Notes: generated by a model from the letters alone, not told the origin. A stretch of 32,000 bases of DNA from Candidatus Hadarchaeota archaeon (GCA_964514965.1 CAZETV010000002.1:90001-122000), one strand, 5' to 3'; positions 9,660 to 31,377 are shown, counted from the first letter of the stretch. Translations and numbers: made by a program.

Positions 9660-10661
<1,002 letters not shown>

Positions 10662-10736: not shown

Positions 10737-10832
10737 TTTTCTACACGAAAAAACGTATCTTCTCACCCATACATAGGCCAATTGTCTCATTTTTTAGACG
10801 CTTAACATTTTTGGTAAGATTTAAAAGCTAGT

Positions 10833-11519: not shown

Positions 11520-11560
11520 TTATCGACAGCGCTCTCGAAGCACTCCGCGCGGGTAATTTT

Positions 11561-13074
<1,514 letters not shown>

Positions 13075-13078
<4 letters not shown>

Positions 13079-13737
13079 GTTTGGATCTAGGCAAGGTTGG
13101 TATCTTGGCCCTTGGATCTCACGAAGAGCGCCATGGTGCGGCCTTGCCTCTCGACACCGACGCCAAGCTAGCTTCACATGTCGCGCTTGAAGCAGCCAAA
13201 CGCACTGGCGCGGAGTTCTTAGGGACACTCTACTCTTCTTATGAGTTACCCTACATCGATACAGGGCGCCACCAGACGCTCGAAGAGGTGATGGAAGAGC
13301 TTAGGGCAAAGCTACAAACGGCAAAACAAATACTGGGTATACAATGCGTTGTGCTGGTCAACGCACACGGGGGAAACAATCCTCTGCGTGACCATATTCA
13401 AGAGCTCGAACAAGAGACCAGCTTGCGGATTATTTTTAATAATAAAATTATTGAGCTTGAAGGTCCCCACGCCGCGACAGGTGAACTGAGCATGGGGGCT
13501 GTAATCGGCATAACAGATGTTTCAAAAATCGTGGAGCACTCTGATTTCGAGCGTTATCCCGAGGTCGGGTTCGTCGGGTTGAAAGAGGCAAGAATAAATT
13601 ATCAATGGGCGGAACGACAGGCCCGAGAGGTTGAAAGGATGGGTGTTCATGCCGACAAATTCTTAGGTGAAAAGCTCTTGGAATGCGCGATTATCAATGT
13701 GGTGAACGATATTCGCAAGCTAGAAACTTTCCACTAA
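13075..13737 (+). CDS. arfB: Creatininase-family amidohydrolase, probable ArfB (FAPy deformylase of archaeal riboflavin synthesis)
   Basis: Creatininase metal-site motifs LGSHEERHGAALPLDTD, NAHGGN and GPHAATGELS. It is translationally coupled (4-nt overlap) to ribH. Confidence 0.7.
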
Positions 13738-13831
13738 ATAAGCGAGTCAAACAGATTGAATTATCTATCGTTTGGTGAAAGCTTTACACAGCATTTTAAT
13801 TTACATGGCAAGTATTTGGGTTAGGGTTTAA

Positions 13832-14596
13832 GTGGAGTTCATCGTCACTCAATTGGCTTACCTTTTGCTCGGAATTGCAACTGGGATATTATCCGGCACA
13901 TTTGGTATCGGGGGCGGAACTTTAACCACCCCTGCAATGCGGGATTTGTTAAGGACGCCCGGACATGTAGCTCTCGGGACCCCTCTACCGATAATCATCC
14001 CTACTGCATTCTCAGGCGCGCTGGTATTCCACAGGAAGAGAATGTTGAAGTATAGAATCGGAGCAGTTTGTGCGCTCGCGGGTTCGGTCACGGCTTTACT
14101 CGGCGCGACTGCGACCGTTTACTTTACTGGCAGAGAAATGATGTTGATAACGAGCGCATTCATAGCCTTGCTAGCGGCTAGGTTCGCATTTGCAGGCAAA
14201 GAACCAAAGCCTAAGGCAAAAACAGCCCCAACAAAATTGCTGCTTCGGGCAACGTTTATCGGCCTCGCTGCTGGAGCTCTTTCTGGTTTCCTCGGTGTGG
14301 GTGGAGGCGTTATCTTAGTGCCAGCTATGGTGTTATTGTTAAACTTCCGCGTGCACGAAGCGGTGGGAACCTCGCTCATGGTCATGGTGATATATGCAAT
14401 TCCCGGCTCGGTAGCTCATTACTTGCTGGGCCATATCGATGTCGCCCTGCTGCTCCCCATTGCAATAGGATCAGTCTTTGGGGCACAATTCGGAGCAAGA
14501 CTCGCCGTTAGGACAAGAGAGAATCGTTTGAGGCTTGCGTTTTCATTTTTCCTGTTTGTGGTCGCCGTTAGCATGGCGGTATTCGAGCTTTTGTGA
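13832..14596 (+). CDS. TauE/SafE family (DUF81) anion exporter
   Basis: 254 aa and polytopic, with duplicated halves each starting with the G-rich motif (GTFGIGGGTLTTPA and GFLGVGGGVILVPA). Confidence 0.85.
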   Translation: MEFIVTQLAYLLLGIATGILSGTFGIGGGTLTTPAMRDLLRTPGHVALGTPLPIIIPTAFSGALVFHRKRMLKYRIGAVCALAGSVTALLGATATVYFTGREMMLITSAFIALLAARFAFAGKEPKPKAKTAPTKLLLRATFIGLAAGALSGFLGVGGGVILVPAMVLLLNFRVHEAVGTSLMVMVIYAIPGSVAHYLLGHIDVALLLPIAIGSVFGAQFGARLAVRTRENRLRLAFSFFLFVVAVSMAVFELL

Positions 14597-17497: not shown

Positions 17498-17636
17498 TAT
17501 TTGAAATAGTTAAGAAAAGCTCTACCGCTTCTACACCAAGGTATAAATTTCTAGATTATTTTGAACTCGGAGGGACATAACTATTTCGTGAAATTGCATC
17601 GTAAACGCTTAATTTGGCTGGACGGTATATTCGTTC

Positions 17637-17735
17637 GGGCCCGTGGCTCAGTCTGGTAGGTGCCTCTGAAGGGCAGCCAAAAGCAATCGGCTCTTAACCG
17701 ATCGGTCGAGGGTTCGAATCCCTCCGGGCCCGCCA
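17637..17735 (+). tRNA. tRNA-Lys(CTT) with a 22-nt intron in the D-arm and an encoded CCA
   Basis: Acceptor GGGCCCG/CGGGCCC, anticodon arm ATCGG-CTCTTAA-CCGAT, T-arm GAGGG-TTCGAAT-CCCTC, discriminator G, then CCA. The D-stem GCTC...GAGC only forms after removing 17660-17681 (GTGCCTCTGAAGGGCAGCCAAA). Confidence 0.85.
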
Positions 17736-17753
17736 TCAAAAATCCCCAATCTG

Positions 17754-17775
17754 AGCAAGATTCTTGCTTATTTTT
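17754..17775 (+). terminator. Hairpin plus T-tract directly after the tRNA
   Basis: AGCAAGA-T-TCTTGCT (7-bp perfect stem) followed by TATTTTT. Confidence 0.4.
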
Positions 17776-17776
17776 C

Positions 17777-17965
17777 GCAAAAATCCTGCCCGAATCCTGC
17801 TCAACTTTTGCCTGAAAATTGCACGAAAGATTTAAACGCCGCACCACAAAAATTATACAAAAATCCTGCTCGAATCCTGCCCGGTTCTTGCGAAAAATCG
17901 TTTGATAGATTTGAATGATAGCAGTCGTCTAGCCGGGGCACCAAAAACATGCGAATATCCTGCCC
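17777..17965 (+). repeat. Composite repeat block, copy A (189 bp identical to 29078-29266)
   Basis: Compared base by base with copy B with no mismatch. The wider repeat-like context spans 17736-18030 and holds three tandem ~80-97 nt units, each with a pair of ATCCTGC heptamers. Confidence 0.95.
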
Positions 17966-18034
17966 GAATCCTGCTCTATTTTTGCGAAAGATCGTTTGAT
18001 AGATTTGAATGATCTAGCCGAGAGAAATTTAACT

Positions 18035-18075
18035 TTATATAACAATCGAAAGTTTTTTTAAAGGTTGTTATATAA
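18035..18075. promoter_or_regulatory. Perfect 11-bp inverted repeat TTATATAACAA-N19-TTGTTATATAA upstream of abiEi (candidate operator over TATA-like boxes)
   Basis: Read directly from the sequence. It ends 10 nt before the AbiEi ATG. AbiEi antitoxins are known autorepressors that bind inverted repeats. Confidence 0.45.
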
Positions 18076-18084
18076 ATAACTATC

Positions 18085-18714
18085 ATGAAAACTTTGACGA
18101 GATACCTGCTATCGAGCTTCGGCGGGGGCGTGGTGACGAGGGATGAGGTCAAGGCGGCGTGCAGGAAGTTCAGGGCAAGCTACGCGAGCACTGTAAACTT
18201 CATGATATCCTATGGATACCTGATCAGGATCCTCCGGGGGCTGTACTACGTCAAGACCCTCGAGGAGTTCAAGCTGGGGAAAGCTGTGGACGTTCACAGG
18301 GCGATCTCCCTCGGCCTGAACAGGCTGGGGGTCGGCTGGTACTTCGGCCTCTACACCGCGCTCAGGCTGAACGGCCTCGTCCACGAGTTCCCCGGCGTCA
18401 CCTTCATCGTGAACGACAGCATATTCAGGCCGAAGGAGATAGAGATAGCTGGGGGGAAGACGAGGTTCTTGAAGCTAAAACGCGGGCTCTTCGGCTTCGG
18501 GGTTGTTGACAAAGGCGGCGTTAAATTCTCCGACCCCGAGAAAACGGTCTTGGATCTCGTCTATTTTTCTAGGTACCGCGGCCTGCCGGGGGAGAGGATA
18601 ATCTCGATGATAGGCGAGTACGGCGAGCGTTTGGAAAAGGAGAAGCTCGAGGCCTACTTGAAATTTTATCCGAAAACCGTCGAAGGGGTTATTAGAGATG
18701 CCGGACTTGTCTGA
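18085..18714 (+). CDS. AbiEi-like antitoxin / transcriptional regulator (type IV TA)
   Basis: N-terminal wHTH ending in YGYLIRILRGLYYV, a C-terminal SDPEKTVLDLVY-type segment, and a 17-nt overlap with the downstream AbiEii gene. Confidence 0.75.
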   Translation: MKTLTRYLLSSFGGGVVTRDEVKAACRKFRASYASTVNFMISYGYLIRILRGLYYVKTLEEFKLGKAVDVHRAISLGLNRLGVGWYFGLYTALRLNGLVHEFPGVTFIVNDSIFRPKEIEIAGGKTRFLKLKRGLFGFGVVDKGGVKFSDPEKTVLDLVYFSRYRGLPGERIISMIGEYGERLEKEKLEAYLKFYPKTVEGVIRDAGLV

Positions 18715-19624
18715 GTTCGTCTCATTCGTCGCCCGTAAATCCAAAGTGAAGAACACCAGCTTGATAGAGAAGGATGTGATGCTGCACAGGATACTCAAGG
18801 AGTTCTGCTCATCTCCACTTTCGGCGAACTATCTTTTCAAAGGGGGTAGCTGCTTGGTCAAATGCTACTTTGGCTACTACAGGTTCAGCGTAGATCTTGA
18901 TTTCACGTGGCGTGATCAGGAGGCGTGGAAGGGGCTGGGGGAAAAAGGGCTGAGGAGAAAGCTGTCGGCGGAGATAAAGCGCCTCGCCTCATTTCTGGCG
19001 AAAGTTTCGGGAGAATTGAATCTCGAGTTCAAGGTTGAGCCGGGGGAGAGGAAGTTTATGGAATTCGGCGGGGGAGGGAGGATGGCAACTTTCAAGCTTT
19101 GGAAGGGATCAGAGCTGATAAAAATTCAGGTGAATTTTGTGGAGAAACTGCTGTTTCCCCCGAAGGTCGCCAGGGCAAGGATTTTGCTGGACGGGGTTAA
19201 ATTATCGAGGGATGAGCGGGTGTACTTCGGAGAATTCTTGGATTTCTACAGACCCTTCAAGCTGATGGCCTACGACGAGAGGGAGATCTTGTGCGAGAAA
19301 GTCAGGGCTATTCTAACGAGGAGGGCCCAAAAGCTGAGGGACTTTTACGATCTGTTCGTGCTCTCCACGCACGGTTTTAAGCTGGAGGATTTGAGGGGGG
19401 AGATAGCCGAAAAGGTGAGGGCCTCGCTCTATTACAGGAAGTACCGGGAGAATCTCGATCGGAACAGAAAAGAGTTGGAGGTAGATGTGGGAACTCTGGA
19501 GGATCCATTTGAGAGGAGCTTGCTGATGGTGAAACCACGGAAGGATTTTGAAGATTTTCTCAAGCTGGCGCGAGAGGGGCTGAGGGAAATAGCGGATGGC
19601 GTTATCTCTGGAGGAACTTTATGA
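18698..19624 (+). CDS. AbiEii/AbiGii-family nucleotidyltransferase toxin (DUF1814)
   Basis: LFKGGSCLVKCYFGYYRFSVDLDFTW is the hallmark NTase motif of the family. 308 aa. Confidence 0.85.
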   Translation: MPDLSEFVSFVARKSKVKNTSLIEKDVMLHRILKEFCSSPLSANYLFKGGSCLVKCYFGYYRFSVDLDFTWRDQEAWKGLGEKGLRRKLSAEIKRLASFLAKVSGELNLEFKVEPGERKFMEFGGGGRMATFKLWKGSELIKIQVNFVEKLLFPPKVARARILLDGVKLSRDERVYFGEFLDFYRPFKLMAYDEREILCEKVRAILTRRAQKLRDFYDLFVLSTHGFKLEDLRGEIAEKVRASLYYRKYRENLDRNRKELEVDVGTLEDPFERSLLMVKPRKDFEDFLKLAREGLREIADGVISGGTL

Positions 19625-20097
19625 CACATGATTACGGCGTGAAAGGGTTCGCCATTTTTTCCGGCTAACTCTGAAGGGGAGGTCAGGGAGATGCTGGACG
19701 CGATCTGGGGGATTGAAAAAGCAGCACTGATTGCCGTGAAAGTATGTTTTATCCCCCTTATTTGGAACGTTGCCAGCCCTACCAAAAACCATCCAACCCC
19801 CCACAAAAAATCAGACATTATTTCAACTACCTGTTTTTCCATCCTCTACTCTCACCTCAAGAAAAATATAAGCTCCCGCTAATAGTCAAGGGGGCATAAA
19901 TGGGTAAAGAAAGCCATGATAAACTCAAAGATTCCAAACATCTGCCACCTGCGTTCAAAATACTTGTTGACTTTGCCGAGGAACGCGGACTATTCAAAGA
20001 AACATCAGAAAATAATAGGAATAGAATCACCTCTTGCGTGGCTGCAGACCGCCACGAGAAAACCGATCGCGTAGATTGTGGCTTGAAGAGTATCACC

Positions 20098-20732
20098 TCA
20101 CCCAGCGAGAAGTTCGTTAATCGCTTGTTCGGCTTCGACGATGTCGTGAAAATTAGTTCTGCGCAAGATGTTCGAGACGGCCTGCTTCGATGTGCGAAAA
20201 TGTTTTGCCATGTCAACATGTTTCGCGTTAGGGTGGGTTTCGAGGTAATCTATAACCTGAGTCTGTCTGCTCGTCCATTTTTTCATCAGGCACAAGACGA
20301 GTCGAACCAGTGCGTTCAGCGTTCGGTCCTTTCGTTCATCTCTCGAGTTAATCACCGCCTCTGTCCTTTCCCGCCTCGCCTTCTCCAGAGCATCGCGGGA
20401 TCGGTAAAAGGCTAGGCCGTCCATTTCGAGAACGTTTTCGCTTAGGGACGTGCTTATCTCTCCGAAACCAACGCCACAGCGGAATCCGACACCCATCGCG
20501 CTTAGGTGGCGCCTAATTTCTTTGAACATTCGGTACGCCTTACTGGGGGATATTAGGGCACCTTGGAACTCGTCTCCCCGGGTGATTGCGAAGTCCGCCT
20601 GCAAATCTTTTCCAAACTCGCGGTTGAGGCGGCGGACCAACGACCGAACCCTGCGCTGGACGAGGGGCCGATTCTTCAATTTTCTGGATTCCTTCAGGTC
20701 TACAGTGATAACACAAAAGTTTTTCCCGTCAT
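20098..20732 (-). pseudogene. SatD-family protein with C-terminal HTH, N-terminus displaced by a 1-nt frameshift in an A5/T5 run
   Basis: FAITRGDEFQGAL, GFRCGVGFGEI and MDGLAFYRSRDAL are SatD motifs. The in-frame upstream sequence FCVITVDLKESRKL matches the SatD N-terminus but has no start codon. ATG 20730-20732 is out of frame by one nt, across the run at 20720-20724. Confidence 0.75.
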
Positions 20733-20927
20733 AAATACACTTCCGAGAGTTTACTTTAGTGAGTAAACCTTTTTAGATTTACCTCCCCTACAAAACTCCA
20801 AGCTCGACCACGAAGTGGAGGACCTCATTCACATGGGATGGATCCACCACCTCGGCCCCGGAACTTCCTCGAAAACACGGGGAGAGCAACATAAATCTTT
20901 ATTTTTGATATGTTTTCCATTTTTTAA

Positions 20928-21320
20928 TTAATATATTTACTGACCTTTGGCAAACCTGCATATGTGGAGAAGTACCAGATATCGCATGCAGAGGCGATCA
21001 AAATGATCGAGAGGGTAAACGGCGTTCCAGTGCTCGCTCATCCAGTTTTCGCGCACGCTGACGACATGCTCCCGGAGTTGGCCGAACTCGGCCTTGGCGG
21101 GATCGAGGTCTACCACAGCAAACATGACGCTCAAACGACCAAGTATTACGAACAACTGGCGCAGAAATACGGCTTGTTGATCGTTGGGGGATCTGACTCC
21201 CACGGTTCGGATATACCAGTCGGGAACGTGCGGATACCCTACTCCCTCGTCGAGAAGCTTAAAATGGAAAGGAATGATATACAGGCGAAGCAGAAGAAAC
21301 CGATTTTACCCAATATCTGA
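20928..21320 (+). pseudogene. C-terminal fragment of a PHP-domain (TrpH/YciV-like) phosphoesterase
   Basis: FGKPAYVEK...AIKMIERVNGVPVLAHP...GLGGIEVYHSKH...LLIVGGSDSHG covers only the last ~115 aa of a normally ~220-280 aa protein. Homology begins abruptly after an AT-rich stretch, and no PHP N-terminal DLHxHT motif is found upstream in any frame. Confidence 0.7.
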
Positions 21321-21650
21321 TAGAGCGCATATTTAGTCAAACGGTTGTGACACCAACTATTTTTTTGGCGGGCTTGGGCGATCGCGGACAAATAACCGGG
21401 TCCAGTTCCCGTCGTGCTCGGGTGTGAAAAGGGAAGAATGGAGAACCTCCCACCCCTGCCAATATTTCCGCATTAACATAGCACGCTTCTGAGTCGCCCG
21501 AAGCCATTCGCCCCGCCTAATGTTTAGGGAAATAAATTTAAATAAGCTTCATCTTTAAATTACAAGGAGGTAATGAATTCGTGATTTGGATCAAGTACTG
21601 GTATTCTTGTGGTTCACCAACCGAGGTACATGTCTGTGAGGTTGTAGGGA

Positions 21651-23483
21651 TTGACAGAACTACATAAAAGATGCGGCTTGGCGGCGGCTTTGACGCTAGT
21701 TCTTGTTTTACTAATCGGCTCCGGTATTCCCACCCAAGCTCAGCCCTTTGACCGCCCCACGCTCAAAACGCCGGATAACGAGTACATAACCAACGACAAT
21801 ACTCCGTACTTCAGCTGGGAAAATATCACAGGTGAAAACATACTCAAATTCCATCTTGTAATAGATAACGACTCAAATTTTGCGGACGGCGAGAATTTCT
21901 ACTACAATTCAAACTTGATTGATAACTTTGACAACTTCGACACGCACTCGGAGAACGCGCTACCTGAGGGGATATGGTACTGGAAGGTTAGAGCAGAGAA
22001 TGCAAATGGGCCGGGCCCCTGGTCCGGTGTCAGGTGGTTGAAAGTCGACGTAACCTCTCCGACGGTTCAGATCTCCGTCAACACCGCTATGGTCTTCGAC
22101 AATTATGTCGGCGCAGACAACTTCGTGGTTACGGCAACGTTCAGCGAGAATATGGACAACACGATTACCCCAACCATCACCTTCACCCCCGACGTGTCGT
22201 TGGATACTTTAGAGAATGTGGTCTTCGCTTGGACCGTCGATAACAGCGTGTGCACGTGGACTTACGATGTGGATGATGAGGGTGTGGAGAACTTGGGCGT
22301 GGACGTGACGATTAGCGGTGGGAAGGATTTGGCAGGGAACGATCAGGTCGACAACACTGGAGAGAACATGTTCTCCGTCGACACCCTAGCGCCTGTTGCC
22401 CCAACGTTGGTGTCGCCCGAGAACAACGAGAACACGAATGACAACACCCCGAACCTCGATTGGGGTACTGTCTCGGATGCCAGCCTGCCGGTACTCTACC
22501 GCGTCCACGTGAGCGATAACTCCCAATTCCCATATGACAACGTGGATTCAGGCTGGATCTCTGACGATAACTACATCACCTCCGAGCTCGCTGAGAGCGT
22601 GTGGTACTGGCGAGTTCACGCGAAGGATAACGCTGGTAACGTGGGAGACAAATCAGCGTCTCGCTCATTCAGGGTCGACATAACTGCGCCTGTTGCCCCA
22701 ACGTTGGTGTCGCCTGATAATGGGGCACAGACGGCTGATAGCACCCCAACGCTCAGTTGGAACGTCGTGAACGATAACTCGCTCCCCGTGACATATGATC
22801 TTCAAGTCGATGATGATTCCGACTTCTCTACGCCCACGGAGAACGTTTCGGGCCTTACCGACTACAGCTATGCCACATCAAGCTTGGCGGATGGGACATG
22901 GTACTGGCGTGTCCGGGCAAGGGACAACGCTGGTAACGCAGGCAACTGGTCATCGAGGTTGTTCACAGTGGACACAACAGCTCAAGCAGCACCTGCCCTC
23001 ACTGCGCCAGCCAATGGCGCGTTCACGAACGATAGCACTCCAACCTTCGACTATGGGTCGATTTCGGGTGCATCGAGTTATACCCTCCAGTACACGACCG
23101 ACAGCGGGTTCACACAAAACCTCACGACGATCTCGAGCACCGCAACGGATTACATTCCGACAGCAGCGTTGGCTGATGGGACATGGTACTGGCGCGTGCG
23201 AACGGTTGATGCCGTGGGCAACATAGGCGGCTGGTCGAGCACTTGGTCCTTCACTATCGACACCGTAACACCAACCGTGACGATATCGCCCTCCCTCGAG
23301 GCCACGCCAACGGCTACCGGCTGGACCTTGACCACCACGGACAGCAGCATCGAGATCAGCGGCTCGGTTACAGACGCGACTGGCGTAACAGTCAAGATAG
23401 ATGATGTAGAGGTGACCGTAGTCGATCGCAGCTTCCGCAAAACTGTAAATTTGATGGTAATAGGTGTGAACACATTCACCTAG
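21651..23483 (+). CDS. Secreted/cell-surface repeat protein (signal peptide, four WYW[KR]V beta-sandwich repeats, Ig-like spacer domains)
   Basis: N-terminal signal-like LAAALTLVLVLLIGSGIPTQAQP. There are four ~97-aa repeats, each with TNDNTP..[FLS]W and [IT]WYW[KR]VRA.[DN].[AN]G motifs. The ORF ends at a TAG that looks premature (see next feature). TTG start. Confidence 0.8.
   Translation: MTELHKRCGLAAALTLVLVLLIGSGIPTQAQPFDRPTLKTPDNEYITNDNTPYFSWENITGENILKFHLVIDNDSNFADGENFYYNSNLIDNFDNFDTHSENALPEGIWYWKVRAENANGPGPWSGVRWLKVDVTSPTVQISVNTAMVFDNYVGADNFVVTATFSENMDNTITPTITFTPDVSLDTLENVVFAWTVDNSVCTWTYDVDDEGVENLGVDVTISGGKDLAGNDQVDNTGENMFSVDTLAPVAPTLVSPENNENTNDNTPNLDWGTVSDASLPVLYRVHVSDNSQFPYDNVDSGWISDDNYITSELAESVWYWRVHAKDNAGNVGDKSASRSFRVDITAPVAPTLVSPDNGAQTADSTPTLSWNVVNDNSLPVTYDLQVDDDSDFSTPTENVSGLTDYSYATSSLADGTWYWRVRARDNAGNAGNWSSRLFTVDTTAQAAPALTAPANGAFTNDSTPTFDYGSISGASSYTLQYTTDSGFTQNLTTISSTATDYIPTAALADGTWYWRVRTVDAVGNIGGWSSTWSFTIDTVTPTVTISPSLEATPTATGWTLTTTDSSIEISGSVTDATGVTVKIDDVEVTVVDRSFRKTVNLMVIGVNTFT
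21753..23261 (+). repeat. Four intragenic ~97-aa repeats (21753-22049, 22386-22679, 22680-22973, 22974-23261)
   Basis: Manual alignment of the protein. An exact 29-nt DNA repeat GCGCCTGTTGCCCCAACGTTGGTGTCGCC at 22389-22417 and 22686-22714 marks the starts of repeats 2 and 3. Confidence 0.7.
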
Positions 23484-23707
23484 CCGTAACCGATGCCGCG
23501 GGCAACACCACGACGCGAACATTGGAAGTCATCCGAGCTGGAGTTGAGCCACCTCCTGTCGCAGAGCCCGCAATCTCGTCTGAGCAAGCCGTGTTCATAG
23601 CCGCGCTCGTCGCGTTATTCATCATCCTGATAGTTTTTGTGAAGATGGTTCTTGTTAAGAAACCTGCGGAACCTGTCCCAAGTTCTGGCCTCCCACCGAC
23701 GAGATAA
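23477..23707 (+). CDS. Frameshifted C-terminal continuation of the surface protein (Ig-like strand plus C-terminal TM anchor)
   Basis: The frame shifted by -1 reads HLAVTDAAGNTTTRTLEVIRAGVEPPPVAEPAISSEQAVFIAALVALFIILIVFVKMVLVKKPAEP... This continues the ...GVNTF sequence naturally and ends in a hydrophobic helix followed by basic residues. Confidence 0.65.
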   Translation, partial: HLAVTDAAGNTTTRTLEVIRAGVEPPPVAEPAISSEQAVFIAALVALFIILIVFVKMVLVKKPAEPVPSSGLPPTR

Positions 23708-24007
23708 CGGCGCAAGTGATGGAGAAGCTTATCAAGGTGCCCCAGAGCTATTGCGCCAAGTGTTGAAAGAAATAGGACTAGACCGGGAGATCGCGGAGCT
23801 AGCCCGAGGCGGGTAATGGGGGGTTTTGAGCATTAATCTAGCAAAAGCTCGGATTACCTCCTGTGCCCCTTTTCTATTTTTTGCGCTCATGCCAAGTTTG
23901 AAAAGTTTAGTCCAACAGTTGGGCCTACACAACTTGGCTATTATAGTTTCGATAGGGGGCGAAATAACCCCATCCCCCGAAACCCCCGAAAGAGGCGCTG
24001 AGTAGAC

Positions 24008-24493
24008 ATGATAGTAGAACGGATAGGAGCCATAACATGCGAGATCCTTCCGGATTCGGGAAATATCATGTCCAGGGCTCAGGAAGTGTTCAGGGAATTG
24101 GGAGAGGTGGAGCAGCGCCTCCGAATCACCGAGCGCAAGCTTTATCGCTTGAAGGAGGGTAGCTGGTCGTATACGAAGAACATGCTAAGGTTTGGGTTCG
24201 CGTCATGGGTCTTCGGCCTTTCGATTTTCTTTTTAGCGGTCGTGGCAATGAGTACCGAACTTTTTGGAGGGGTTCCGCTGACTTGGAGCTCCTTGCTCGT
24301 GGGGACCCCCTTGCTCGTGGGAGCCCCCGCAGCGCCCATGATGATGACGGCTGCGTCGGTCCGCAAGTTTGACACCAAGATAAAGCGCCTCAGACACATC
24401 CGAAGTGGCCTAGCGGTAAAGTACACTAGAGCCCTCTACCAGTACCAGAGGGCCTCCCTCCAATATTTGAAGCAGGCGGGTTCTACTGGGTAA
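24008..24493 (+). CDS. Hypothetical membrane protein (coiled-coil N-terminus, two TM helices)
   Basis: 161-aa ORF with the hydrophobic segments FGFASWVFGLSIFFLAVVAM and LLVGTPLLVGAPAAPMMMTAA. No family recognised. The start may be the second ATG (MSRAQEVF). Confidence 0.5.
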   Translation: MIVERIGAITCEILPDSGNIMSRAQEVFRELGEVEQRLRITERKLYRLKEGSWSYTKNMLRFGFASWVFGLSIFFLAVVAMSTELFGGVPLTWSSLLVGTPLLVGAPAAPMMMTAASVRKFDTKIKRLRHIRSGLAVKYTRALYQYQRASLQYLKQAGSTG

Positions 24494-24775
24494 GATAAAT
24501 TGTTTCGTAAAAATGGTTTTTCTGGGCAGTAATTCAGTTTTATGTCCAAAACCGATTTAACCCCCTCGCTCAAAATCACTTTCGTGCACTCTCGTGTATT
24601 GTAAAACACTTCATTACTTTAAAAGGATCAAGCGCCCCTGAGCCTAAATGATAAAGATTAATAAGTTGACTACGCAGCTGGGATTGGGTACAATTTGGAT
24701 TCGGACAGGCTTGACATTATCCTATGAACAACATCCGCGCTGATCTCGTCGATAGGTTCGCATGAGCTATTCCAA

Positions 24776-25552
24776 GTGATAGTAGATAATGCCAAGGAGA
24801 TATCCGGTGCAAAGTTCGTTTCCCTATCTTTTTTCAACGAGGAGAGGGACACGGTTAAACTCGGCGCGCTGTCGGGCCCCGAACCTTCTTTGTTAAGAAA
24901 GGTATCAGAGATGTTAAAAATAGAAAATCTATTTCGCCACGGGTTCCCGGTCAGCAAGTGTCCAAGTTTTCAGGAGTTCTTAAAGAAGAAAGAGAGAAAA
25001 CCTGTCATCCTCAGCGGCTTTCACGAATACACCTTTGGATTGTTCGATAAAAGGATATGTAGTCTAATCGAAAAAATTGTGGGCTTTGAGGAGGTAGTGG
25101 CGATTCCGTTACTGAAAAATGAAAAGGTGGAGGGAATTTTAGGTTATTTATTTCCTACCAAGGAAAAGCGTGACTTCACCCCACTGCTGATTTTTGCAGA
25201 CCTCGCATCTCAAGCTTTAGAAAAATCAAAAATGTTTGAAGAACGGTTGAGGGGAGGGAAGGTCGCTATAATGAGCGAATATCTCGCAGGAGACATTATT
25301 AGAGAGTTCGGCGTTAGAATTCCAGTGGGAGAGTTAGGTTCGCGAGAGATTTTAGGACAGCTGGCTGACCTTGCTACTAAGCCTCCGCCCCGGAATTTAT
25401 TCAACCTATTAGTCGCCGGGACGCACATAGCTCTCAGTCAAGAGGGAGTTGAGGTAAGCGAAGTAGAGATCCGTGAATTCTTGGCCCCCAATCATCAGAA
25501 GATTCCTTCAGGAAGGAATGGTATGAGAACCTTGACAACCATGAGAATATAA
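24776..25552 (+). CDS. GAF domain followed by the N-terminal half of a PLD (HKD) domain; 5' piece of a split gene
   Basis: GAF pattern: VIVDNAKEISGAKFVSLSFFNEE...VVAIPLLKNEKVEGILGYLF...LLIFADLASQALEKSKMFE. The C-terminal HIALSQEGVEVSEVEIREFLAP parallels AILGAADRGVEIKFMVP of the second PLD domain in the next ORF. Confidence 0.7.
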   Translation: MIVDNAKEISGAKFVSLSFFNEERDTVKLGALSGPEPSLLRKVSEMLKIENLFRHGFPVSKCPSFQEFLKKKERKPVILSGFHEYTFGLFDKRICSLIEKIVGFEEVVAIPLLKNEKVEGILGYLFPTKEKRDFTPLLIFADLASQALEKSKMFEERLRGGKVAIMSEYLAGDIIREFGVRIPVGELGSREILGQLADLATKPPPRNLFNLLVAGTHIALSQEGVEVSEVEIREFLAPNHQKIPSGRNGMRTLTTMRI

Positions 25553-25596
25553 CTGTTTTAACATTCCTAGCGAATATAACGCTGCACTCCAAGTAC

Positions 25597-28500
25597 ATGA
25601 TAGTTGACAACAGGATTGTCTCCGTCGGCAGCACTAACTGGGGCCACAGATCCCTTACAACCAACCGTGAAATGAACCTTACGCTTCGCGGAGAGAACAT
25701 CGCTGATTCGTTCACTTACATCTTCGATTCAGGTTGGGTCGCAGCCGGCGGACAAGCTAGGGGCGGTGAATACTGGGAAGAAAATTGGATTTATCCCGTA
25801 GCCAACGGCGCAGAGATCCCAGAAAATGTTACTGACACGGTGGACGAGTGGGTTAATATGTTTGATAACGCGCAGGATAATGTCCAGCTATATCAGTACG
25901 CTTACAATGGTGGTCCCGCTGAAGTTCGTGAGGCTATATTGGGTGCGGCAGACCGCGGCGTGGAAATAAAATTTATGGTGCCCCAGCGCTCGTACGACAG
26001 ATGGCCGAGTGCAACGGAGGAACTAGCAAGTCACAAGAATATCCATGTTAAAACAATTGAGTTCCCGGTGGGCGTGGCTCATCCCAAATTTATTAACGTG
26101 GATGGCCAGCGAACATGGGTGGGGAGCGCTAACATACACTCTGACTGGATATTAACCGGTAGGGAAGTTGGCGTCACGGTCTATCACTCCCAGACCGTTG
26201 ATACCCTGCTCACCATATTTTACACCGACTGGGAGAGCGTATACGCTTCGTGGGTTAGTCCCAACGCGGTTGAAGTGGGGGTCTCACCAACTCGGAAAGG
26301 CGATTTACCTGGAGAAACGCTCCAGTTCGGTGTTACCGTTGCAAATGTCGGGGAAGTCATCGATAACTACGACCTGACGGTTAGCGACAATGCTGGCTGG
26401 ACTCTTTCGCTCTCAGAAAATCGAGTTGAGAACGTTCAGCCCAGTGAGAACGGAACAGTAACGCTCAGCGTCACCATTCTTGGAAATGCTGGAACAGGTG
26501 AGGTTAGTGTGGTAACGGTTACAGCTACTTCCGAAAACGACAATAACGTGAGTTCGAGTGATAAGGTCCTCGCGCTGGCAGCGGGTTCGGTGAGCATTTC
26601 TCCTACCGACGACTCTTATGTTGATCAGGCGAACCCCGACTCGAATTACGGCTCTGAAACTTATCTAGAGATAGCGAGCAAGTGGGATGGAAAACGGCGC
26701 AGCTTCCTTGAGTTCAACCTCAGCGATAATCTGTCAGATAACGCTTTGATAATTGATGCAGAGCTCAACCTATACTTCTATTGGGGCAGCGACTACGTCG
26801 CACTGCGCGATGCAGGCGTACTTATTGAGGCAAGGGAGGTGACCGATGATTCCTGGAGCGAATCGACGATAACCTGGAATAACGCTCCAACGGTAGGGGA
26901 AGTGATCAACACCTCAGAGATAGGCTCCTACGGCTGGAAGAAGTGGGATGTAGATGACTACGTTGCCGAACAGCTTGAGAACGAGAGCGATCAACTTGCT
27001 AGCTTTGCCATAAAACTTGATAACGAGGATTTCGATAACACCCTCAGAAGAATGCGGTTCCGCTCCGATGAATACTCAGACAACACAGAGCTCCGGCCGT
27101 ACCTCAAAGTCAAGTACTTCCCAGCGGTCTACGATGTGCAAGTAGAAGTAGACAAGGAAGAGCGAGGCCGTCCAGCAGGCTGGGTTGCTAATTATACGGT
27201 GACTGTGACAAACAAGGGCAACATCAATGACAACTACGAGCTAACTGTGAGCGATAACAATTGGCTGACCAGTGTAGATCCAACGCTTCTAAAAGATGTC
27301 TTTCCAGAAGAAAACGAATTAGTAACCTTAAAGGTTACGGTTCCAGCTAACGCAAAGCCTGGAGATTCAGACAACGCCACGATTATCGCTACTTCACAGA
27401 CAAAGCCTGCGGTCAGCGATAACAAAAAGGTAACGACAAAAGTCGTGGTAGACTACAAGCTCAGGCCATGCGAGGATGACTCATATGTGAACGAGGCGGA
27501 TCCGAGCACTAATTACGGTACCGAGCCACACCTTGAGATCGCAACCATGGTCGACAACAACAGGCGTGCATTCTTGAAATTCGAACTCTCAAAAATACCC
27601 GAAAACGTGGAGATTTACAGCTCGAGGCTCTACCTGTACTTCTACTGGGGCTCCAACTACACCGAGCTGAGAGAGAATTATGATATGAAAATTGAAGCCT
27701 ACAAGGTCAGCGATGACAGCTGGAGCGAGGGCACCCTAACTTGGAACAACCAGCCCACAATTGGGAATAAAATCGACTATACTTCGATAGGGTCTTGGAA
27801 AAGCTGGAAGTACTGGGACATAAAAAGCTACTTCGAGGAGCAACGTGGGATTGACAATCTGGCTTCCTTCGCCATAATGTTTGAGAACGAGAATTTCGAC
27901 AACACCCTTAGGAGAATAAGATACCGCTCGAAGGAGTACACGGACGACACAAGTCTCACGCCCTACCTGAGCGTCTGGTACTTCCCCACGACGGTTATTT
28001 ACGATGTTGAATTGGCAGCGACACCAGAGGCCCAAGGCGATAACGCGGGTGAAAATCTTGAATACACTGTGAAAGTCACAAACCTCGGCAACGTCCCTGA
28101 CAGCTTTGCCCTAACGGTTACAAGCAGTCTAGGCTGGAACGCCGTTGTTAGTCCGGAAAATCTTGAAGATATCCTACCGAACGAAACCGAGAATGCAACA
28201 CTAACCGTTACGATTCCGGAAAACGCGCAACCCGGAGAGGTCGACAACGTGACCATCACGGTGACATCACTTGGGGATAACACGGTGGGCGATAACGCAG
28301 TTGTCCGTGCAGGCATCTCGCAAACCACGACCTTGCTTCCAGCCGATGACGCGGCGGTCTTCCAGGATTTACCGGACTCGAACTATGGAAGCGAGACCTG
28401 GCTGGAGGTCACAAGCGCGGTCGACAACAACCGACGCTCGTTGCTCAAATTCGACCTATCCTCGCTGCCTGCGGGCTCCGATGTAATCGGGGCTGACCTA

Positions 28501-28854
28501 AACATGTACTTCTACTGGGGATCTGGCTTCACCGCACTTCGGGATGCAGACGTGCTAATCGAGGCCCGTGAAATCTTGGATGATAATTGGAGCGAGTCGA
28601 CGGTGACTTGGAACAATGCCCCCACCTTAGACAATCTGATCAATGCTGTGGAGATAGGTTCCTACGATTGGAAGGTATGGAACGTAGGCAACTTTGTAGC
28701 TCAACAGTTTGAGAACGATAATCTAGCGAGTTTCGCCATTAAATTCGACACCGAGGACTTTGACGAAACGTTGCGGAGGATACGATTCCGATCGCAGGAG
28801 TACTCGGATAACCTTACCCTAAGACCGTATCTGGAAGTGGAGTACTATCCATAG
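25597..28854 (+). CDS. PLD-family (two HKD motifs) protein with three tandem CARDB/NEW3-like + DNRLRE-like modules; 3' piece of a split gene
   Basis: HKD motifs are H-S-K-YMIVDNRIVSVGSTNW (the H and K lie upstream of the annotated ATG; the frame is open from 25477) and AHPKFINVDGQRTWVGSANI. After these come three ~290-aa modules. No signal peptide. Confidence 0.85.
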   Translation: MIVDNRIVSVGSTNWGHRSLTTNREMNLTLRGENIADSFTYIFDSGWVAAGGQARGGEYWEENWIYPVANGAEIPENVTDTVDEWVNMFDNAQDNVQLYQYAYNGGPAEVREAILGAADRGVEIKFMVPQRSYDRWPSATEELASHKNIHVKTIEFPVGVAHPKFINVDGQRTWVGSANIHSDWILTGREVGVTVYHSQTVDTLLTIFYTDWESVYASWVSPNAVEVGVSPTRKGDLPGETLQFGVTVANVGEVIDNYDLTVSDNAGWTLSLSENRVENVQPSENGTVTLSVTILGNAGTGEVSVVTVTATSENDNNVSSSDKVLALAAGSVSISPTDDSYVDQANPDSNYGSETYLEIASKWDGKRRSFLEFNLSDNLSDNALIIDAELNLYFYWGSDYVALRDAGVLIEAREVTDDSWSESTITWNNAPTVGEVINTSEIGSYGWKKWDVDDYVAEQLENESDQLASFAIKLDNEDFDNTLRRMRFRSDEYSDNTELRPYLKVKYFPAVYDVQVEVDKEERGRPAGWVANYTVTVTNKGNINDNYELTVSDNNWLTSVDPTLLKDVFPEENELVTLKVTVPANAKPGDSDNATIIATSQTKPAVSDNKKVTTKVVVDYKLRPCEDDSYVNEADPSTNYGTEPHLEIATMVDNNRRAFLKFELSKIPENVEIYSSRLYLYFYWGSNYTELRENYDMKIEAYKVSDDSWSEGTLTWNNQPTIGNKIDYTSIGSWKSWKYWDIKSYFEEQRGIDNLASFAIMFENENFDNTLRRIRYRSKEYTDDTSLTPYLSVWYFPTTVIYDVELAATPEAQGDNAGENLEYTVKVTNLGNVPDSFALTVTSSLGWNAVVSPENLEDILPNETENATLTVTIPENAQPGEVDNVTITVTSLGDNTVGDNAVVRAGISQTTTLLPADDAAVFQDLPDSNYGSETWLEVTSAVDNNRRSLLKFDLSSLPAGSDVIGADLNMYFYWGSGFTALRDADVLIEAREILDDNWSESTVTWNNAPTLDNLINAVEIGSYDWKVWNVGNFVAQQFENDNLASFAIKFDTEDFDETLRRIRFRSQEYSDNLTLRPYLEVEYYP
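26266..28851 (+). repeat. Three tandem ~290-aa modules (26266-27123, 27124-27990, 27991-28851)
   Basis: Each module has V.V.N.GN..D.Y.LTVS...W...........E..T.TL.VT.P.NA.PG (CARDB/NEW3-like). This is followed by DDSYV..A.P.SNYG.E..LE......NRR.FLKF.LS...YFYWGS......WSE.T.TWNN.P......FDNTLRR.R.RS.EY (DNRLRE-like). Conservation is at protein level, with DNA diverged at many synonymous positions. Confidence 0.8.
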
Positions 28855-28871
28855 GACCAGAGTTCAAAAAA

Positions 28872-28903
28872 GGGCGGCTTGCCGCCGCCCGCTCTCTTCT
28901 TTT
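28872..28903 (+). terminator. GC-rich hairpin plus T-rich tail after the giant ORF
   Basis: GGGCGGC-TTGCC-GCCGCCC (7-bp stem) followed by GCTCTCTTCTTTT, 18 nt after the stop codon. Confidence 0.5.
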
Positions 28904-29037
28904 AAGGGAAAGTTTCACTTTGGTTTTATGTTCTCGAATAATAGAAAAGAAATGGGCGAGCTGCAACATTGGAAATTGCGCCATAACTAGCGATTAATCA
29001 GGATGAAGCGGAATCGCAAGTTATGGTAGATTTAAAC

Positions 29038-29069
29038 GGTAGCTTAAAACCTACTCCCCCGCGCCACCA
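29038..29069 (+). other. tRNA-3'-end-like fragment (not tRNA-Lys) immediately preceding repeat block B
   Basis: GGTAGCTTAAAACCTACTCCCCCGCGCCACCA has a T-loop-like TTAAAAC and a GC-rich acceptor-like strand ending in CCA. No matching 5' half lies upstream. Confidence 0.4.
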
Positions 29070-29077
29070 AAAATCAT

Positions 29078-29266
29078 GCAAAAATCCTGCCCGAATCCTG
29101 CTCAACTTTTGCCTGAAAATTGCACGAAAGATTTAAACGCCGCACCACAAAAATTATACAAAAATCCTGCTCGAATCCTGCCCGGTTCTTGCGAAAAATC
29201 GTTTGATAGATTTGAATGATAGCAGTCGTCTAGCCGGGGCACCAAAAACATGCGAATATCCTGCCC
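29078..29266 (+). repeat. Composite repeat block, copy B (189 bp identical to 17777-17965)
   Basis: Base-by-base comparison. The repeat context extends, with divergence, to about 29320 and includes the shared TTAACTTTA[TA]AT box. Confidence 0.95.
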
Positions 29267-29347
29267 AAATCTTGCCCAATTTTTGCCGAGAAATCGTTTG
29301 AAGTTAACTTTAAATATTTGAACCTAACTTCATAATATGGTGCGGTC

Positions 29348-29926
29348 ATGAAATTCCATAATGTGTTAGAGGAAGTGTTTGGAACTGGCGAGAGGGTAAA
29401 AGTACTGCGAGTTCTTACACGGTACCCTAAGGAATTCACTTCTAGGGAACTGTCTGGATATTGCGGCGTCTCCGTTCGCGGTATCATTGATATTCTTACT
29501 CTTTTCGAGCGTTACGGGTTCGTAAAAAGCCGCAGGGTTGGGAAGTCCATCCTTTGGAAGATAGACGGGGGCAACTACCTGACCAAGGAACTCATCCTGC
29601 CATCCTTTGAGGTGGAGGGGGGCATCGTGGATCATCTAAAGCGGGGGATTTCGACGATGGTTAGGAGGTTCCCGGTGCGAAAAGCGGTGATCTACGGGAG
29701 CGTCGCCCGCGGGGATGAGCGACCTGACAGCGACATAGACCTATTGTTGGTCGTGGAAAAAAAGGGTAAATGGGTGAAGGAACTCCAAAATAAGCTCAGA
29801 GGGGAGATATTGGCGCTTTTTGGTAACACGCTGTCGATACTCGTTTGCACTCCGGGCGAGTACAAAAAAATGAGCAGGGGGCTGAAGAAGGAGATAGAAG
29901 GAGGCATCGTGGCCTTCGGTGGTTGA
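29348..29926 (+). CDS. wHTH-fused minimal nucleotidyltransferase (MNT-type antitoxin of a HEPN/MNT pair)
   Basis: The NTase motif is YGSVARGDERPDSDIDLLLVV (GSxxRGx5-SDxDL). The N-terminal ~90 aa are wHTH-like (RVKVLRVLTRYPKEFTSRELSGYCGVSVRGIIDIL). Confidence 0.8.
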   Translation: MKFHNVLEEVFGTGERVKVLRVLTRYPKEFTSRELSGYCGVSVRGIIDILTLFERYGFVKSRRVGKSILWKIDGGNYLTKELILPSFEVEGGIVDHLKRGISTMVRRFPVRKAVIYGSVARGDERPDSDIDLLLVVEKKGKWVKELQNKLRGEILALFGNTLSILVCTPGEYKKMSRGLKKEIEGGIVAFGG

Positions 29927-30332
29927 TGTGGTCGAAACGCAAAAGGTCGAAAAGCACCTCTATTCAAACTACCTCGAAAAGGCCCGAGAATACTTAGATG
30001 GTATGAAAGATGAGCTGGCAAACAAACGCTGGAACTTGGCCGTCCTAGCAGGCGTCCATTGCACCATCTCAGCATGTGATGCGCTGACGATCTTCTTCTT
30101 GGGTAGAAAACACAAGGGGATAAAACACGCCGATGCCGCAAAGCTCCTCGCTAGCATCGAGGGGATTGATCCAAGGAAGTTAAGGGAGAAATCCAACCAG
30201 CTCATCTCCATCTTGGATTACAAAACCCCAGTGGAATACGACAAAACCGTGTTCAAGGAGTCGGACGCAAAGGAACTCACAAAAAGGGTCGAGCGCTTTT
30301 ACAGTTGGGTCAAGGGGAAGTTGCCGGAGTGA
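29919..30332 (+). CDS. HEPN-domain protein (toxin partner of the MNT)
   Basis: 137 aa and helical, with an Rx4-6H motif in GRKHKGIKH. The GTG start overlaps the MNT gene by 8 nt. Confidence 0.8.
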   Translation: MVDVVETQKVEKHLYSNYLEKAREYLDGMKDELANKRWNLAVLAGVHCTISACDALTIFFLGRKHKGIKHADAAKLLASIEGIDPRKLREKSNQLISILDYKTPVEYDKTVFKESDAKELTKRVERFYSWVKGKLPE

Positions 30333-30347
30333 TGCCGATATTTGGTC

Positions 30348-30387
30348 CCGTAGGGGTTCGGGGGGTTCAAACCCTACCCCCGCACCA
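30348..30387 (+). other. tRNA-3'-end-like fragment immediately preceding repeat block C
   Basis: CCGTAGGGGTTCGGGGGGTTCAAACCCTACCCCCGCACCA has a GGTTCAAA T-loop-like core and a CCCCCGCACCA acceptor-like end. It is related to the fragment at 29038-29069. No 5' half is present. Confidence 0.35.
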
Positions 30388-30398
30388 ACAAAAATCGT

Positions 30399-30527
30399 GC
30401 AAAAATCCTGCCCAATTTTTGCCTGAAAATTGCACGAAAGATTTAAACGCCGCACCACAAAAATTACGCAAAAATCCTGCTCGAATCCTGCCCGGTTCTT
30501 GCGAAAAATCGTTTGGGAGATTTGAAC
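30399..30527 (+). repeat. Composite repeat block, copy C (shortened, near-identical to parts of A/B)
   Basis: A 50-nt run (30417-30466 = 17806-17855) and a 47-nt run (30469-30515 = 17858-17904) are identical, separated by a 2-nt difference. Copy C lacks one 11-nt heptamer period near its start. Confidence 0.9.
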
Positions 30528-30555
30528 GGGGGCTTGAACCTATCCGGGCCCGCCA
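30528..30555 (+). other. Degenerate copy of the tRNA-Lys T-arm/acceptor 3' end (putative right-hand att remnant)
   Basis: GGGGGCTTGAACCTATCCGGGCCCGCCA versus tRNA 17708-17735 GAGGGTTCGAATCCCTCCGGGCCCGCCA. The terminal 13 nt are identical and 22 of 28 match overall by manual alignment. Confidence 0.6.
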
Positions 30556-30600
30556 TATGTATACCGTAAGTTTTGCCCAATTCTAGCGGTACGAGTAAAC

Positions 30601-31377
30601 TCAATCGAGGCGCACGACTTCAATCTTCTTTAAGTCACAAACGCCAAGCTTTGCTTCTTGGGCGAGTTTCAGGTGCCCTACAGTAGAAGGGTCAATCCCT
30701 AGAACGGTGGACCCCACAGCATCGGCCGCGATCGGATCGTTTGAAAAAATCATCACATCAAACCGCTTTCGTTCGCCACCCAACTCCGAGCTTAAACTGA
30801 GCCGCCCGTCAATCACCGCTAAATCGGGGAGCTTGTAGCGGTTGATGTCGACGATGCTCTCTTCGATGCCCAGCTTGTGAAATCTGCCCTTATCCCGTCC
30901 GATGGTGGCGCCGAGCATGTTCTTTAGCGAGAGCGTTACACGGGCTGATGAATGCTGTTTCAAAACAGCCACCGATATCAAATAGGTGCCCTTTAAAACC
31001 ATTGGGAACTCGAACCGCTTCAGCACTGCTGCCTCCGCTTTTTTCAAAACCTCGAACTCCTCCGAATTTAAGTCAACTAGCTTCACCCCGTGATAATTCG
31101 CCAATTCAACATAACCCTGATTACGATAGATAGTGTGGGTGCCCCCAAACCCTGAACCCTCGGCGACGATAAGTTGATTATCGTCCTTGAAAAATTTCAC
31201 GAGAGCTTCAACGGTGTCGGTAGGAGTCGTAACGGGATATGGGCGATCGGCGATGAGGTTAGGTTTTATCACCACTTTCCTGCGATGAACTTCAACACCC
31301 AAAGAGCGCAGGCCCTTTGGTACCATCGTGGTGGGGTCGTTTCCTCTTACAACAACAACTTTCGACATGCCCCTCAC
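30601..31377 (-). CDS. DUF362 domain-containing protein
   Basis: 258 aa in which VVIKPNL..., LIVAEGSG, LKQHSSARVTLSLKNMLG and AVIDG fit the DUF362 pattern. Confidence 0.85.
   Translation of the reverse strand: MRGMSKVVVVRGNDPTTMVPKGLRSLGVEVHRRKVVIKPNLIADRPYPVTTPTDTVEALVKFFKDDNQLIVAEGSGFGGTHTIYRNQGYVELANYHGVKLVDLNSEEFEVLKKAEAAVLKRFEFPMVLKGTYLISVAVLKQHSSARVTLSLKNMLGATIGRDKGRFHKLGIEESIVDINRYKLPDLAVIDGRLSLSSELGGERKRFDVMIFSNDPIAADAVGSTVLGIDPSTVGHLKLAQEAKLGVCDLKKIEVVRLD

Follow-up and report, generated by a model that had tools for sequence, protein, structure and literature searches.

A composite cassette array behind a tRNA-Lys gene of Hadarchaeota, probably built from integrase-less units recombined in trans

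Integrative elements that target tRNA genes in archaea were reportedly described by She et al. in 2001. The flexible tRNA targeting of archaeal integrases has been discussed together with the notion of an 'integrase provided in trans' (PMC7253208), and arrays arising by re-use of the same site are known (PMC6563490). Cis-mobilizable elements (CIMEs), which accrete in tandem at tRNA genes, have been described in Streptococcus and other bacteria (Pavlovic 2004; Bellanger 2011; for a review see PMC5704250). Here we analyse a locus of this kind from an archaeon, namely a 12.8 kb segment lying directly behind the tRNA-Lys(CTT) gene in a stretch of 32,000 nucleotides (hereafter the window) from a Candidatus Hadarchaeota archaeon (GCA_964514965.1, CAZETV010000002.1:90001-122000, one strand, 5' to 3'). 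This segment (17736-30555 of the window) is not one element but an array in which two or more cassettes with cargo stand together with several units that have none, and it has probably grown by tandem accretion of integrase-less cassettes that are bounded by attachment (att) sites and recombined by an enzyme acting in trans. A full-text literature search returned no description of such arrays in Hadarchaeota.

The only tRNA gene that ARAGORN detects in the window, at 17637-17735, is labelled Ala(ggc) by that program owing to a ~22 nt intron in its D arm. The anticodon loop CTCTTAA, read by hand and compared with orthologues that have no D-arm intron, identifies it as Lys(CTT). The introns of the orthologues (L003-L012, L030) vary in number and position, L011 having only the canonical one at 37/38 and L006 and L007 having two, and ARAGORN misnames most of these genes (as Ala, Leu, Arg, Glu, Pro or Pyl). 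Core genes end at dph5 and this tRNA and restart at DUF362/AOR, with 12.8 kb between the tRNA and the stop codon of DUF362 (30601). The Dph5 protein is 75-87% identical to its counterparts in Hadarchaeota metagenome-assembled genomes, which makes the host a member of this group. In five relatives (L003, L006, L007, L012, L030) the gene order is AOR - DUF362 - 34-45 nt - tRNA-Lys - dph5. These empty sites, with DUF362 just 34-45 nt from the tRNA, establish that the 12.8 kb segment has indeed been inserted into a Hadarchaeota chromosome behind its tRNA-Lys(CTT) gene. At two other loci, L004 and L008, the tRNA-Lys site was suspected to be occupied, perhaps with an integrase, but this was rejected, as the genes there are core genes with a different synteny rather than mobile elements. 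The borders and repeats of the insertion are as follows, with positions counted from the first letter of the window:

17637-17735, plus strand: tRNA-Lys(CTT), the attachment target, with the D-arm intron at about 17660-17681
17723-17736, plus strand: left core copy (attL core), TCCGGGCCCGCCAT, an exact repeat
17736-18022, plus strand: block L, with units a (17736-17846, ending in CCGCACCA), b (17847-17943, ending in the Gln-like CCGGGGCACCA) and c (17944-18022, with a truncated tRNA-like end)
29023-29069, plus strand: M0, the arm ATGGTAGATTTAAACGG plus a class-II-tRNA-like 3' end (..CCTACTCCCCCGCGCCACCA), forming the right end of an 11.3 kb segment
29070-29302, plus strand: block M, with units a (29070-29147), b (29148-29244) and c (29245-29302), the last fused to the MNT promoter-like GAAGTTAACTTTAAATATTTGAA
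29303-30387, plus strand: MNT-HEPN mini-cassette, comprising a promoter-like box, MNT (29348-29926), HEPN (29919-30332), GCCGATATT and the fragment R0 (30343-30387)
30388-30555, plus strand: block R, with units a (30388-30457) and b* (30458-30555), the latter ending in the hybrid attR, GATTTGAACGGGGGCTTGAACCTAT plus the acceptor end CCGGGCCCGCCA
30543-30556, plus strand: right core copy (attR core), followed by a 45 nt trailer like the tRNA-Lys trailers of the relatives and by the DUF362 stop

The three blocks are copies of a ~270 bp block and consist of tandem units of ~70-110 nt that are all mutually homologous, arranged as a, b, c in L and M and as a, b* in R; L and M further have an exact repeat of 189 bp in common (17777-17965 = 29078-29266). 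A unit begins with (C)AAAAT, continues with the AWTCYTGCYC box or boxes, TTGCGAAAAATCG and GATTTRAAYG, and closes with a stretch that resembles a tRNA 3' end as far as the CCA. The window has 14 occurrences of the AWTCYTGCYC motif where 0.8 would be expected, all of them within the blocks, 13 on the plus strand and mostly in pairs 11 nt apart, and there are 8 copies of GATTTRAAYG against 0.4 expected; within the window the units are restricted to the three blocks. Their termini correspond to different tRNAs: unit a shares its terminal CCGCACCA with tRNA-Leu and tRNA-Gly(CCC), unit b closes with CTAGCCGGGGCACCA, for which tRNA-Gln(CTG) is nearest, and unit b* with the tRNA-Lys end. R0, in turn, is a 45 nt 3' fragment of tRNA-Leu (41/46 to the last 46 nt of a Hadarchaeota tRNA-Leu), while the arrangement seen in M0 is also found upstream of MNT in contig L040. 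In all, the island holds the 3' ends of at least four different tRNAs; 28 Hadarchaeota tRNA 3' ends used as probes found no further fragments in the 11.3 kb segment. In blocks L and M, unit c abuts a promoter-like TTAACTTTAWATA box before a toxin-antitoxin (TA) operon, and its tRNA-like end is truncated or deleted, which would lock these inner junctions. The units fold no better than shuffled sequence and Rfam matches only the tRNA, suggesting that they are DNA sites rather than RNA genes. A blastn search of block L against phage and plasmid collections gave no match, and neither did a spurious open reading frame (ORF) across block R, used as a protein-database query for miscalled ORFs over similar repeats.

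The 14 nt core TCCGGGCCCGCCAT, which spans the last part of the T stem, the 3' strand of the acceptor, the CCA and one extra base, is present in exactly two copies in the window, against a chance expectation of 0.01, and the two border sites are 80% identical over 30 nt (24/30). The 42 nt 3' of tRNA-Lys align with the repeat units of the island (z 3-5) and not with native trailers, and the 45 nt 3' of the right core align with the tRNA-Lys trailers of the relatives (z 4-5). To judge from these alignments, the flanks have the classical B-O-P' ... P-O-B' layout, i.e. tRNA-core-element on the left and element-core-trailer on the right. An insertion point 20 nt downstream of the tRNA, entertained for the resemblance of the sequence after attL to the trailers of relatives, was discarded, as the units fare better in the alignment statistics.

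In the right site, the stretch that resembles a T arm (GCTTGAACCTAT, with GATTTGAACG before it) is conserved element sequence that is also present in L034 and L041, two contigs with related units at a tRNA-Gly(CCC) gene. The arm of the right site, GATTTGAACGGGGGCTTGAACCTAT, is unlike the local T arm and nearly identical to GATTTGAACGAAAGCTTGAACCTAT in the L034 and L041 units, where it is followed by CCGGCCGCACCA, which is the acceptor end of the adjoining tRNA-Gly(CCC) and not the Lys end. Unit b* and the units of these contigs have in common AAATCGTYTG..AGATTTGAACG...G..TGAACCTAT, after which comes the acceptor end of the local tRNA, Lys in the former and Gly(CCC) in the latter; in both settings, the identity to the local tRNA starts exactly at CCGG. 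The right border is hence shown by comparison to be a hybrid between an element arm and the local acceptor end, i.e. a predicted hybrid att site, and not a decayed T-arm copy. This is as expected if an element site recombined with different tRNA genes, with the crossover in the last ~12 nt. The first-pass annotation of the window had drawn the limits of the core genes correctly, had called an insertion at the 3' end of tRNA-Lys, which the empty sites bear out, and had noted that 22 of 28 nt match at the right end, including a terminal repeat of 13 nt, which extends to 14; these positions and counts are right. It had also taken the right end for a decayed copy of the local tRNA and the whole for one single island; these two claims give way to the hybrid site and to the cassette array, of which it had not made out the three blocks with their 189 bp repeat, R0 and M0.

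The MNT-HEPN cassette is also found at other loci. The homologues of the MNT protein number 57, at 60-94% identity; several are annotated as Hadarchaeota, and many lie on contigs of just 1.1-1.4 kb, which would fit a cassette flanked by assembly-breaking repeats. In L036, the CCA of tRNA-Leu(CAG) is immediately followed by TTCAACAGC...GAAGTTAACTTTAAATATTTGAA...MNT-HEPN...GCCGATATC, after which the tRNA end is perfectly repeated over 47 nt and a core gene follows; this insert (9833-11042) measures 1.12 kb, has perfect 47 nt (+2) direct repeats and lies between the DUF1512/EF-G and phosphoglucomutase core genes. The cassette occupies tRNA-Leu(CAG) in L037-L039 too, with the right repeat decayed, and in L043 it stands behind tRNA-Leu(GAG) with a diverged left end, the same tRNA being without a cassette in L004. 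In L034, L041 and L042, the left boundary before TTCAACAGC is as in L036, though it comes after a unit ending in a tRNA-Gly end. The right end, GCCGATAT with the tRNA-Leu fragment after HEPN, is common to the window, L041 and L042, whereas L034 has neither HEPN nor this end. At their ends, tRNA-Leu, tRNA-Gly(CCC) and unit a have only CCGCACCA in common, so that a Leu-type cassette end and a Gly-type site must have been joined within those 8 nt. Judged by its boundaries, MNT-HEPN has clearly travelled as a unit of 1.1 kb among three or more kinds of site, which is hard to square with repeated independent decay and thus argues for recombination in trans.

A comparable composite structure is seen in L034, where an island of 7.2 kb (7227-14526) lies between tRNA-Gly(CCC) and a 94% identical, 47 nt long copy of the 3' end of this tRNA. 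It contains, in order, a Fic gene (SoFic according to PADLOC), a unit, a minus-strand HEPN/MNT pair, a second unit and a plus-strand MNT gene with a giant Big_13/PLC protein. The corresponding region of L041 (3122-5810) is 97-99% identical over the shared parts, but is without the 1.2 kb cassette formed by the minus-strand HEPN/MNT pair and a unit, and has an extra unit of 135 nt beside the tRNA. Both differences fall exactly at junctions that follow ..CCGGCCGCACC, indicating that near-identical strains gain or lose cassettes as whole units.

These observations can be accommodated in a common scheme. Read from the tRNA, the array comprises units a, b and c; the 11.3 kb segment, which opens with AbiEi/AbiEii and has M0 at its end; a second set of units a, b and c; the 1.1 kb MNT-HEPN mini-cassette with its 45 nt tRNA-Leu fragment; units a and b*; and the native trailer. 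Every junction consists of an element arm of ~70 nt joined to the 3' end of some tRNA up to the CCA, with the arm comprising two AWTCYTGCYC boxes 11 nt apart, GATTTRAAYG and the T-arm-like stretch. We propose that the junctions are att sites through which cassettes would come in and go out by site-specific recombination, with the strands exchanged inside the final ~8-13 nt of the tRNA, i.e. the acceptor 3' strand and the CCA, and with the paired boxes as putative arm-type binding sites. The recombinase would be supplied in trans, most likely as the tyrosine integrase of a resident or superinfecting element. The foreign tRNA ends in the island (Leu, Gln-like and Gly/Leu-like) suggest that some of its parts were assembled at other tRNA loci and arrived as composites. 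More tentatively, Hadarchaeota might possess an integron-like means of capturing cassettes via tRNA 3' ends, in which promoter-bearing defence and TA cassettes are handled by a promiscuous recombinase encoded elsewhere. Such a capture system would then include the MNT-HEPN, Fic and AbiE-led cassettes, each with a tRNA-end-like site of ~50-100 nt, and their arrays would be stacked behind Lys, Gly and Leu tRNA genes by exchange in the same last ~8-13 nt.

We searched for a recombinase by running Pfam on all annotated ORFs and on the six frames of 17580-30620, using every stop-to-stop segment of at least 30 aa, and by scanning the ORFs of the island with NCBIfam and PHROGs. In agreement with the first-pass annotation, which had reported no recombinase, split SSV-type integrase, transposase or replication gene, these scans recovered no integrase, transposase, Cas1, TnpB or Rep in the island. 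It has neither the element-encoded integrase of tRNA-integrated elements nor the halves, int(N) and int(C), that overlap attL and attR in SSV-type elements. The two minus-strand ORFs lying over the att sites (17581-17847 and 30180-30458), which both start with MVRRLNLSCNFQAK, were examined as a possible split integrase, but they are translated repeat units with no family match. Likewise, a 258 aa ORF without a Pfam match (24776-25552) was dismissed as a hidden recombinase, its homologues being GAF/PAS sensor proteins of 300-356 aa. There are no inverted repeats at the ends of the units or the island, which, with no transposase or TnpB, sets the locus apart from miniature inverted-repeat transposable elements and insertion sequences. 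The flanking genes, covered for ~10 kb on the left and ~9 kb on the right by two independent Logan contigs with precomputed Pfam matches, are all core metabolism genes with no integrase on record. No integrase lies within 10 kb of the cassettes in L034-L043, or up to the contig end; this includes the full 10 kb around the L036 insert, and none is on record for the tRNA-Gly island of L034. As a separate observation, two Hadarchaeota contigs have LAGLIDADG_3-like ORFs (weak Pfam matches) near ribosomal-protein and tRNA genes, at 2220-2576 in L034 and 4430-5413 in L043.

The remaining cargo of the island, all of it in the 11.3 kb segment, is as follows:

18085-18714 and 18698-19624, plus strand: AbiEi and AbiEii, an intact type IV TA/abortive-infection pair directly after block L
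20098-20679, minus strand: SatD-family protein with a C-terminal MarR-like winged helix-turn-helix, the sole minus-strand gene
20964-21320, plus strand: fragment of a PHP phosphoesterase gene, reduced to its last third (positions 173-258 of the 259 in the NCBIfam profile; full gene ~260 aa)
21651-23483, plus strand: Big_13/Ig-repeat surface protein, with its hydrophobic C-terminal anchor out of frame at 23522-23707
24776-25552 and 25597-28854, plus strand: GAF-like sensor gene without its last ~62 codons and a protein with PLDc_2 and three CBM96 domains, with a deletion scar

The accessory content named in the first-pass annotation, i.e. AbiEi/AbiEii, SatD, the PHP fragment, two repeat proteins and MNT/HEPN, is thereby upheld by profile matches. 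AbiEi (PADLOC 5e-78, over 1-206 of 209 aa) and AbiEii (PADLOC 2e-101, Pfam 7e-27) are adjoining and full length, as in AbiE systems. In the Hadarchaeota contig L035 (8578-10970), AbiEi and AbiEii stand back to back with the MNT-HEPN cassette, without the 11 kb that intervene in the window. MNT (NTP_transf_2, 2e-10) and HEPN (1.4e-6) are encoded by adjoining genes with an overlap of 8 nt, as in type VII TA systems; the match of MNT to MntA is weak (2.4e-7, 30.6 bits), under the NCBIfam cut-off of 60 bits. Signs of decay are found throughout the 11.3 kb segment, in the form of the PHP fragment, the frameshifted Big_13 gene and the GAF/PLD deletion junction (25490-25600), at which the PLD-CBM96 gene is 5'-truncated: it starts inside the first PLDc_2 domain, with the HKD motif HSKYMIVD just upstream of the first ATG. 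The displacement of the Big_13 anchor into another frame (23470-23707) reflects a frameshift or a sequencing error. Right after the stop of the PLD-CBM96 gene, at 28868-28905, there is a terminator-like G+C-rich hairpin, GGGCGGCTTGCCGCCGCCC, with a T-rich run behind it.

The alternatives to accretion in trans differ in what they leave unexplained. If a single integrative element in tRNA-Lys had lost its integrase and replication genes, leaving an immobile remnant in which the internal repeats are incidental, then the outer 14 nt direct repeat, the empty sites and the extensive decay evident from the truncated and frameshifted genes of the 11.3 kb part would all be expected. However, such a remnant should not contain three copies of a block and at least four different tRNA 3' ends, nor a discrete 1.1 kb MNT-HEPN cassette that has identical boundaries at other tRNAs with no integrase nearby and near-identical strains that differ by whole cassettes; independent decay to identical boundaries is unlikely, and so, in our estimate, is this explanation of the island as a whole. 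The first-pass annotation had itself left the choice between a lost mobilising gene and movement in trans tied to the internal repeats. The former is a possible and fair alternative for the degraded 11.3 kb segment and a poor fit for the MNT-HEPN cassette with its conserved ends, while the latter suits that cassette well, which keeps identical 1.1 kb boundaries at two sites, tRNA-Leu(CAG) and tRNA-Gly(CCC), stands at tRNA-Leu(GAG) with a diverged left end, and is part of the present island. Host homologous recombination could also do without a dedicated recombinase, by acting on circles or fragments with 45-190 nt of tRNA-derived or unit sequence, the units being multiplied by unequal crossing-over and gene conversion. 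This would account for the exact 189 bp repeat of L and M, the perfect 47 nt repeat in L036, the tandem cargo-less units and the failure to find an integrase, but some junction partners have only ~8-13 nt in common, which is typical of a short crossover core. For instance, the tRNA-Leu-type cassette end beside a tRNA-Gly end involves the common stretch CCGCACCA, and the element arm meets either the Lys or the Gly acceptor end exactly at CCGG. With the arm moreover retaining conserved, phased boxes, we think it unlikely that homologous recombination alone built the array.

A misassembly, in which the 11.3 kb piece (17966-29077 plus one copy of the repeat) is a separate circle or belongs elsewhere and was threaded in via the 189 bp repeat, seems still less probable. 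Four k=31 Logan contigs (L001, L002, L032, L033; SRR14802574) do stop 30 nt into every copy of the repeat, and the graph can equally well be read as a chromosome with MNT-HEPN only and a separate circle of 11.3 kb. Against this, the submitted contig spans 245 kb with an order compatible with all four Logan contigs, the other path still leaves a unit-flanked cassette array behind tRNA-Lys, and an 11.3 kb circle would itself be the excised form predicted by recombination in trans. Least probable by far, to the point of being barely credible, is an archaeal integron remnant, i.e. a cluster of attC sites lacking an integron-integrase (CALIN), with the units as attC sites. The locus is indeed an array of small cassettes separated by sites of ~100 nt, and integrons or CALINs, in which TA cassettes are common, occur in 3-4% of Hadarchaeota genomes (PMC9668308). 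Nevertheless, the units have no long imperfect attC hairpin (plus-strand z between -0.6 and -1.8, minus-strand z positive) and, by eye, no RYYYAAC...GTTRRRY pair; their junctions are tRNA 3' ends, the cassettes have promoter-like boxes of their own, and no match of the IntI/Phage_integrase type was obtained in the island or is on record for the flanking genes of the Logan contigs.

Several points weigh against the accretion of cassettes recombined in trans. The trans-acting recombinase is hypothetical, with none identified anywhere, and no circular or excised form was seen. The cargo-less units and the 189 bp repeat could stem from homologous recombination or gene conversion and not from integration; the order of the segments across that repeat rests on the assembly, as short-read graphs cannot order them; and the 11.3 kb segment, being degraded and without a counterpart elsewhere, might be all that is left of an element that was formerly autonomous. 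The units are known from two lineages only, that of the window and that of L034/L041. Five exact-motif patterns of unit and cassette ends had no match in IMG/VR, and one such pattern gave a single chance match in JGI metagenomes, in a coding region of the unrelated-looking contig L031.

Should cassettes of 1.1 kb and units of ~100 nt indeed be shuttled without a recombinase of their own, island finders that require an integrase would miss a layer of archaeal gene flux, and this would matter most for defence and TA genes. It would also constitute a second, integron-independent route to cassette arrays. The tRNA-end fragments at the junctions could then be read as a record of the tRNA sites that the pieces had earlier visited. 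In practical terms, a unit with its tRNA end, recombined with a tRNA gene, offers a concrete substrate for finding the Hadarchaeota recombinase.

Among described systems, the Dehalococcoides islands at ssrA (tmRNA) resemble the present array in being placed serially behind a small RNA gene with repeated 3' ends between them (PMC3146451). They are much larger than the cassettes found here. These islands are also said to carry integrase genes of their own. The similarity to integron arrays and CALINs (PMC9668308) lies in the small TA and defence cassettes, the sites of ~50-100 nt, the fixed anchor and the possibility of an integrase acting in trans; however, the sites in the present array appear to be tRNA-end-like double-strand sites rather than attC hairpins, the anchor is a tRNA gene rather than attI, promoter-like boxes are present and there is no IntI. 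As in the archaeal elements with SSV-type, pT26-2-type (suicidal) or type II tyrosine integrases (PMC7253208; PMC6563490), the 3' part of a tRNA gene is targeted, a copy of the tRNA 3' end serves as the att site (47 nt in L036), the choice of tRNA is flexible and arrays can form by re-use of the site. Those elements encode an integrase, which in the SSV type is divided into int(N) and int(C), whereas neither an integrase nor a fragment of one is found here in any frame, and the crossover, which in them lies in the T loop or the anticodon region, is here apparently at the extreme 3' end.

The closest parallel is provided by the CIMEs, which retain attL and attR and have no integration or transfer genes, as is the case here, and which stand in tandem at a tRNA 3' end with internal att sites, the recombinase being thought to come from another element. 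The composite island would fit the model of accretion and co-mobilisation developed for bacterial CIMEs (PMC5704250). CIMEs are, however, decayed integrative and conjugative or integrative and mobilizable elements of several kb, whereas here at least one cassette, a TA module of 1.1 kb, has moved between tRNA sites in minimal form. The 11.3 kb segment is degraded, as an origin by decay would have it, yet the ends of MNT-HEPN are precise and conserved at several sites, which argues against independent decay. The cargo-less units, the ends of several different tRNAs and the archaeal host further distinguish the locus from CIMEs. What is new is thus the occurrence of unusually small cassettes and a conserved, putative recombination arm in a CIME-like array at an archaeal tRNA gene.

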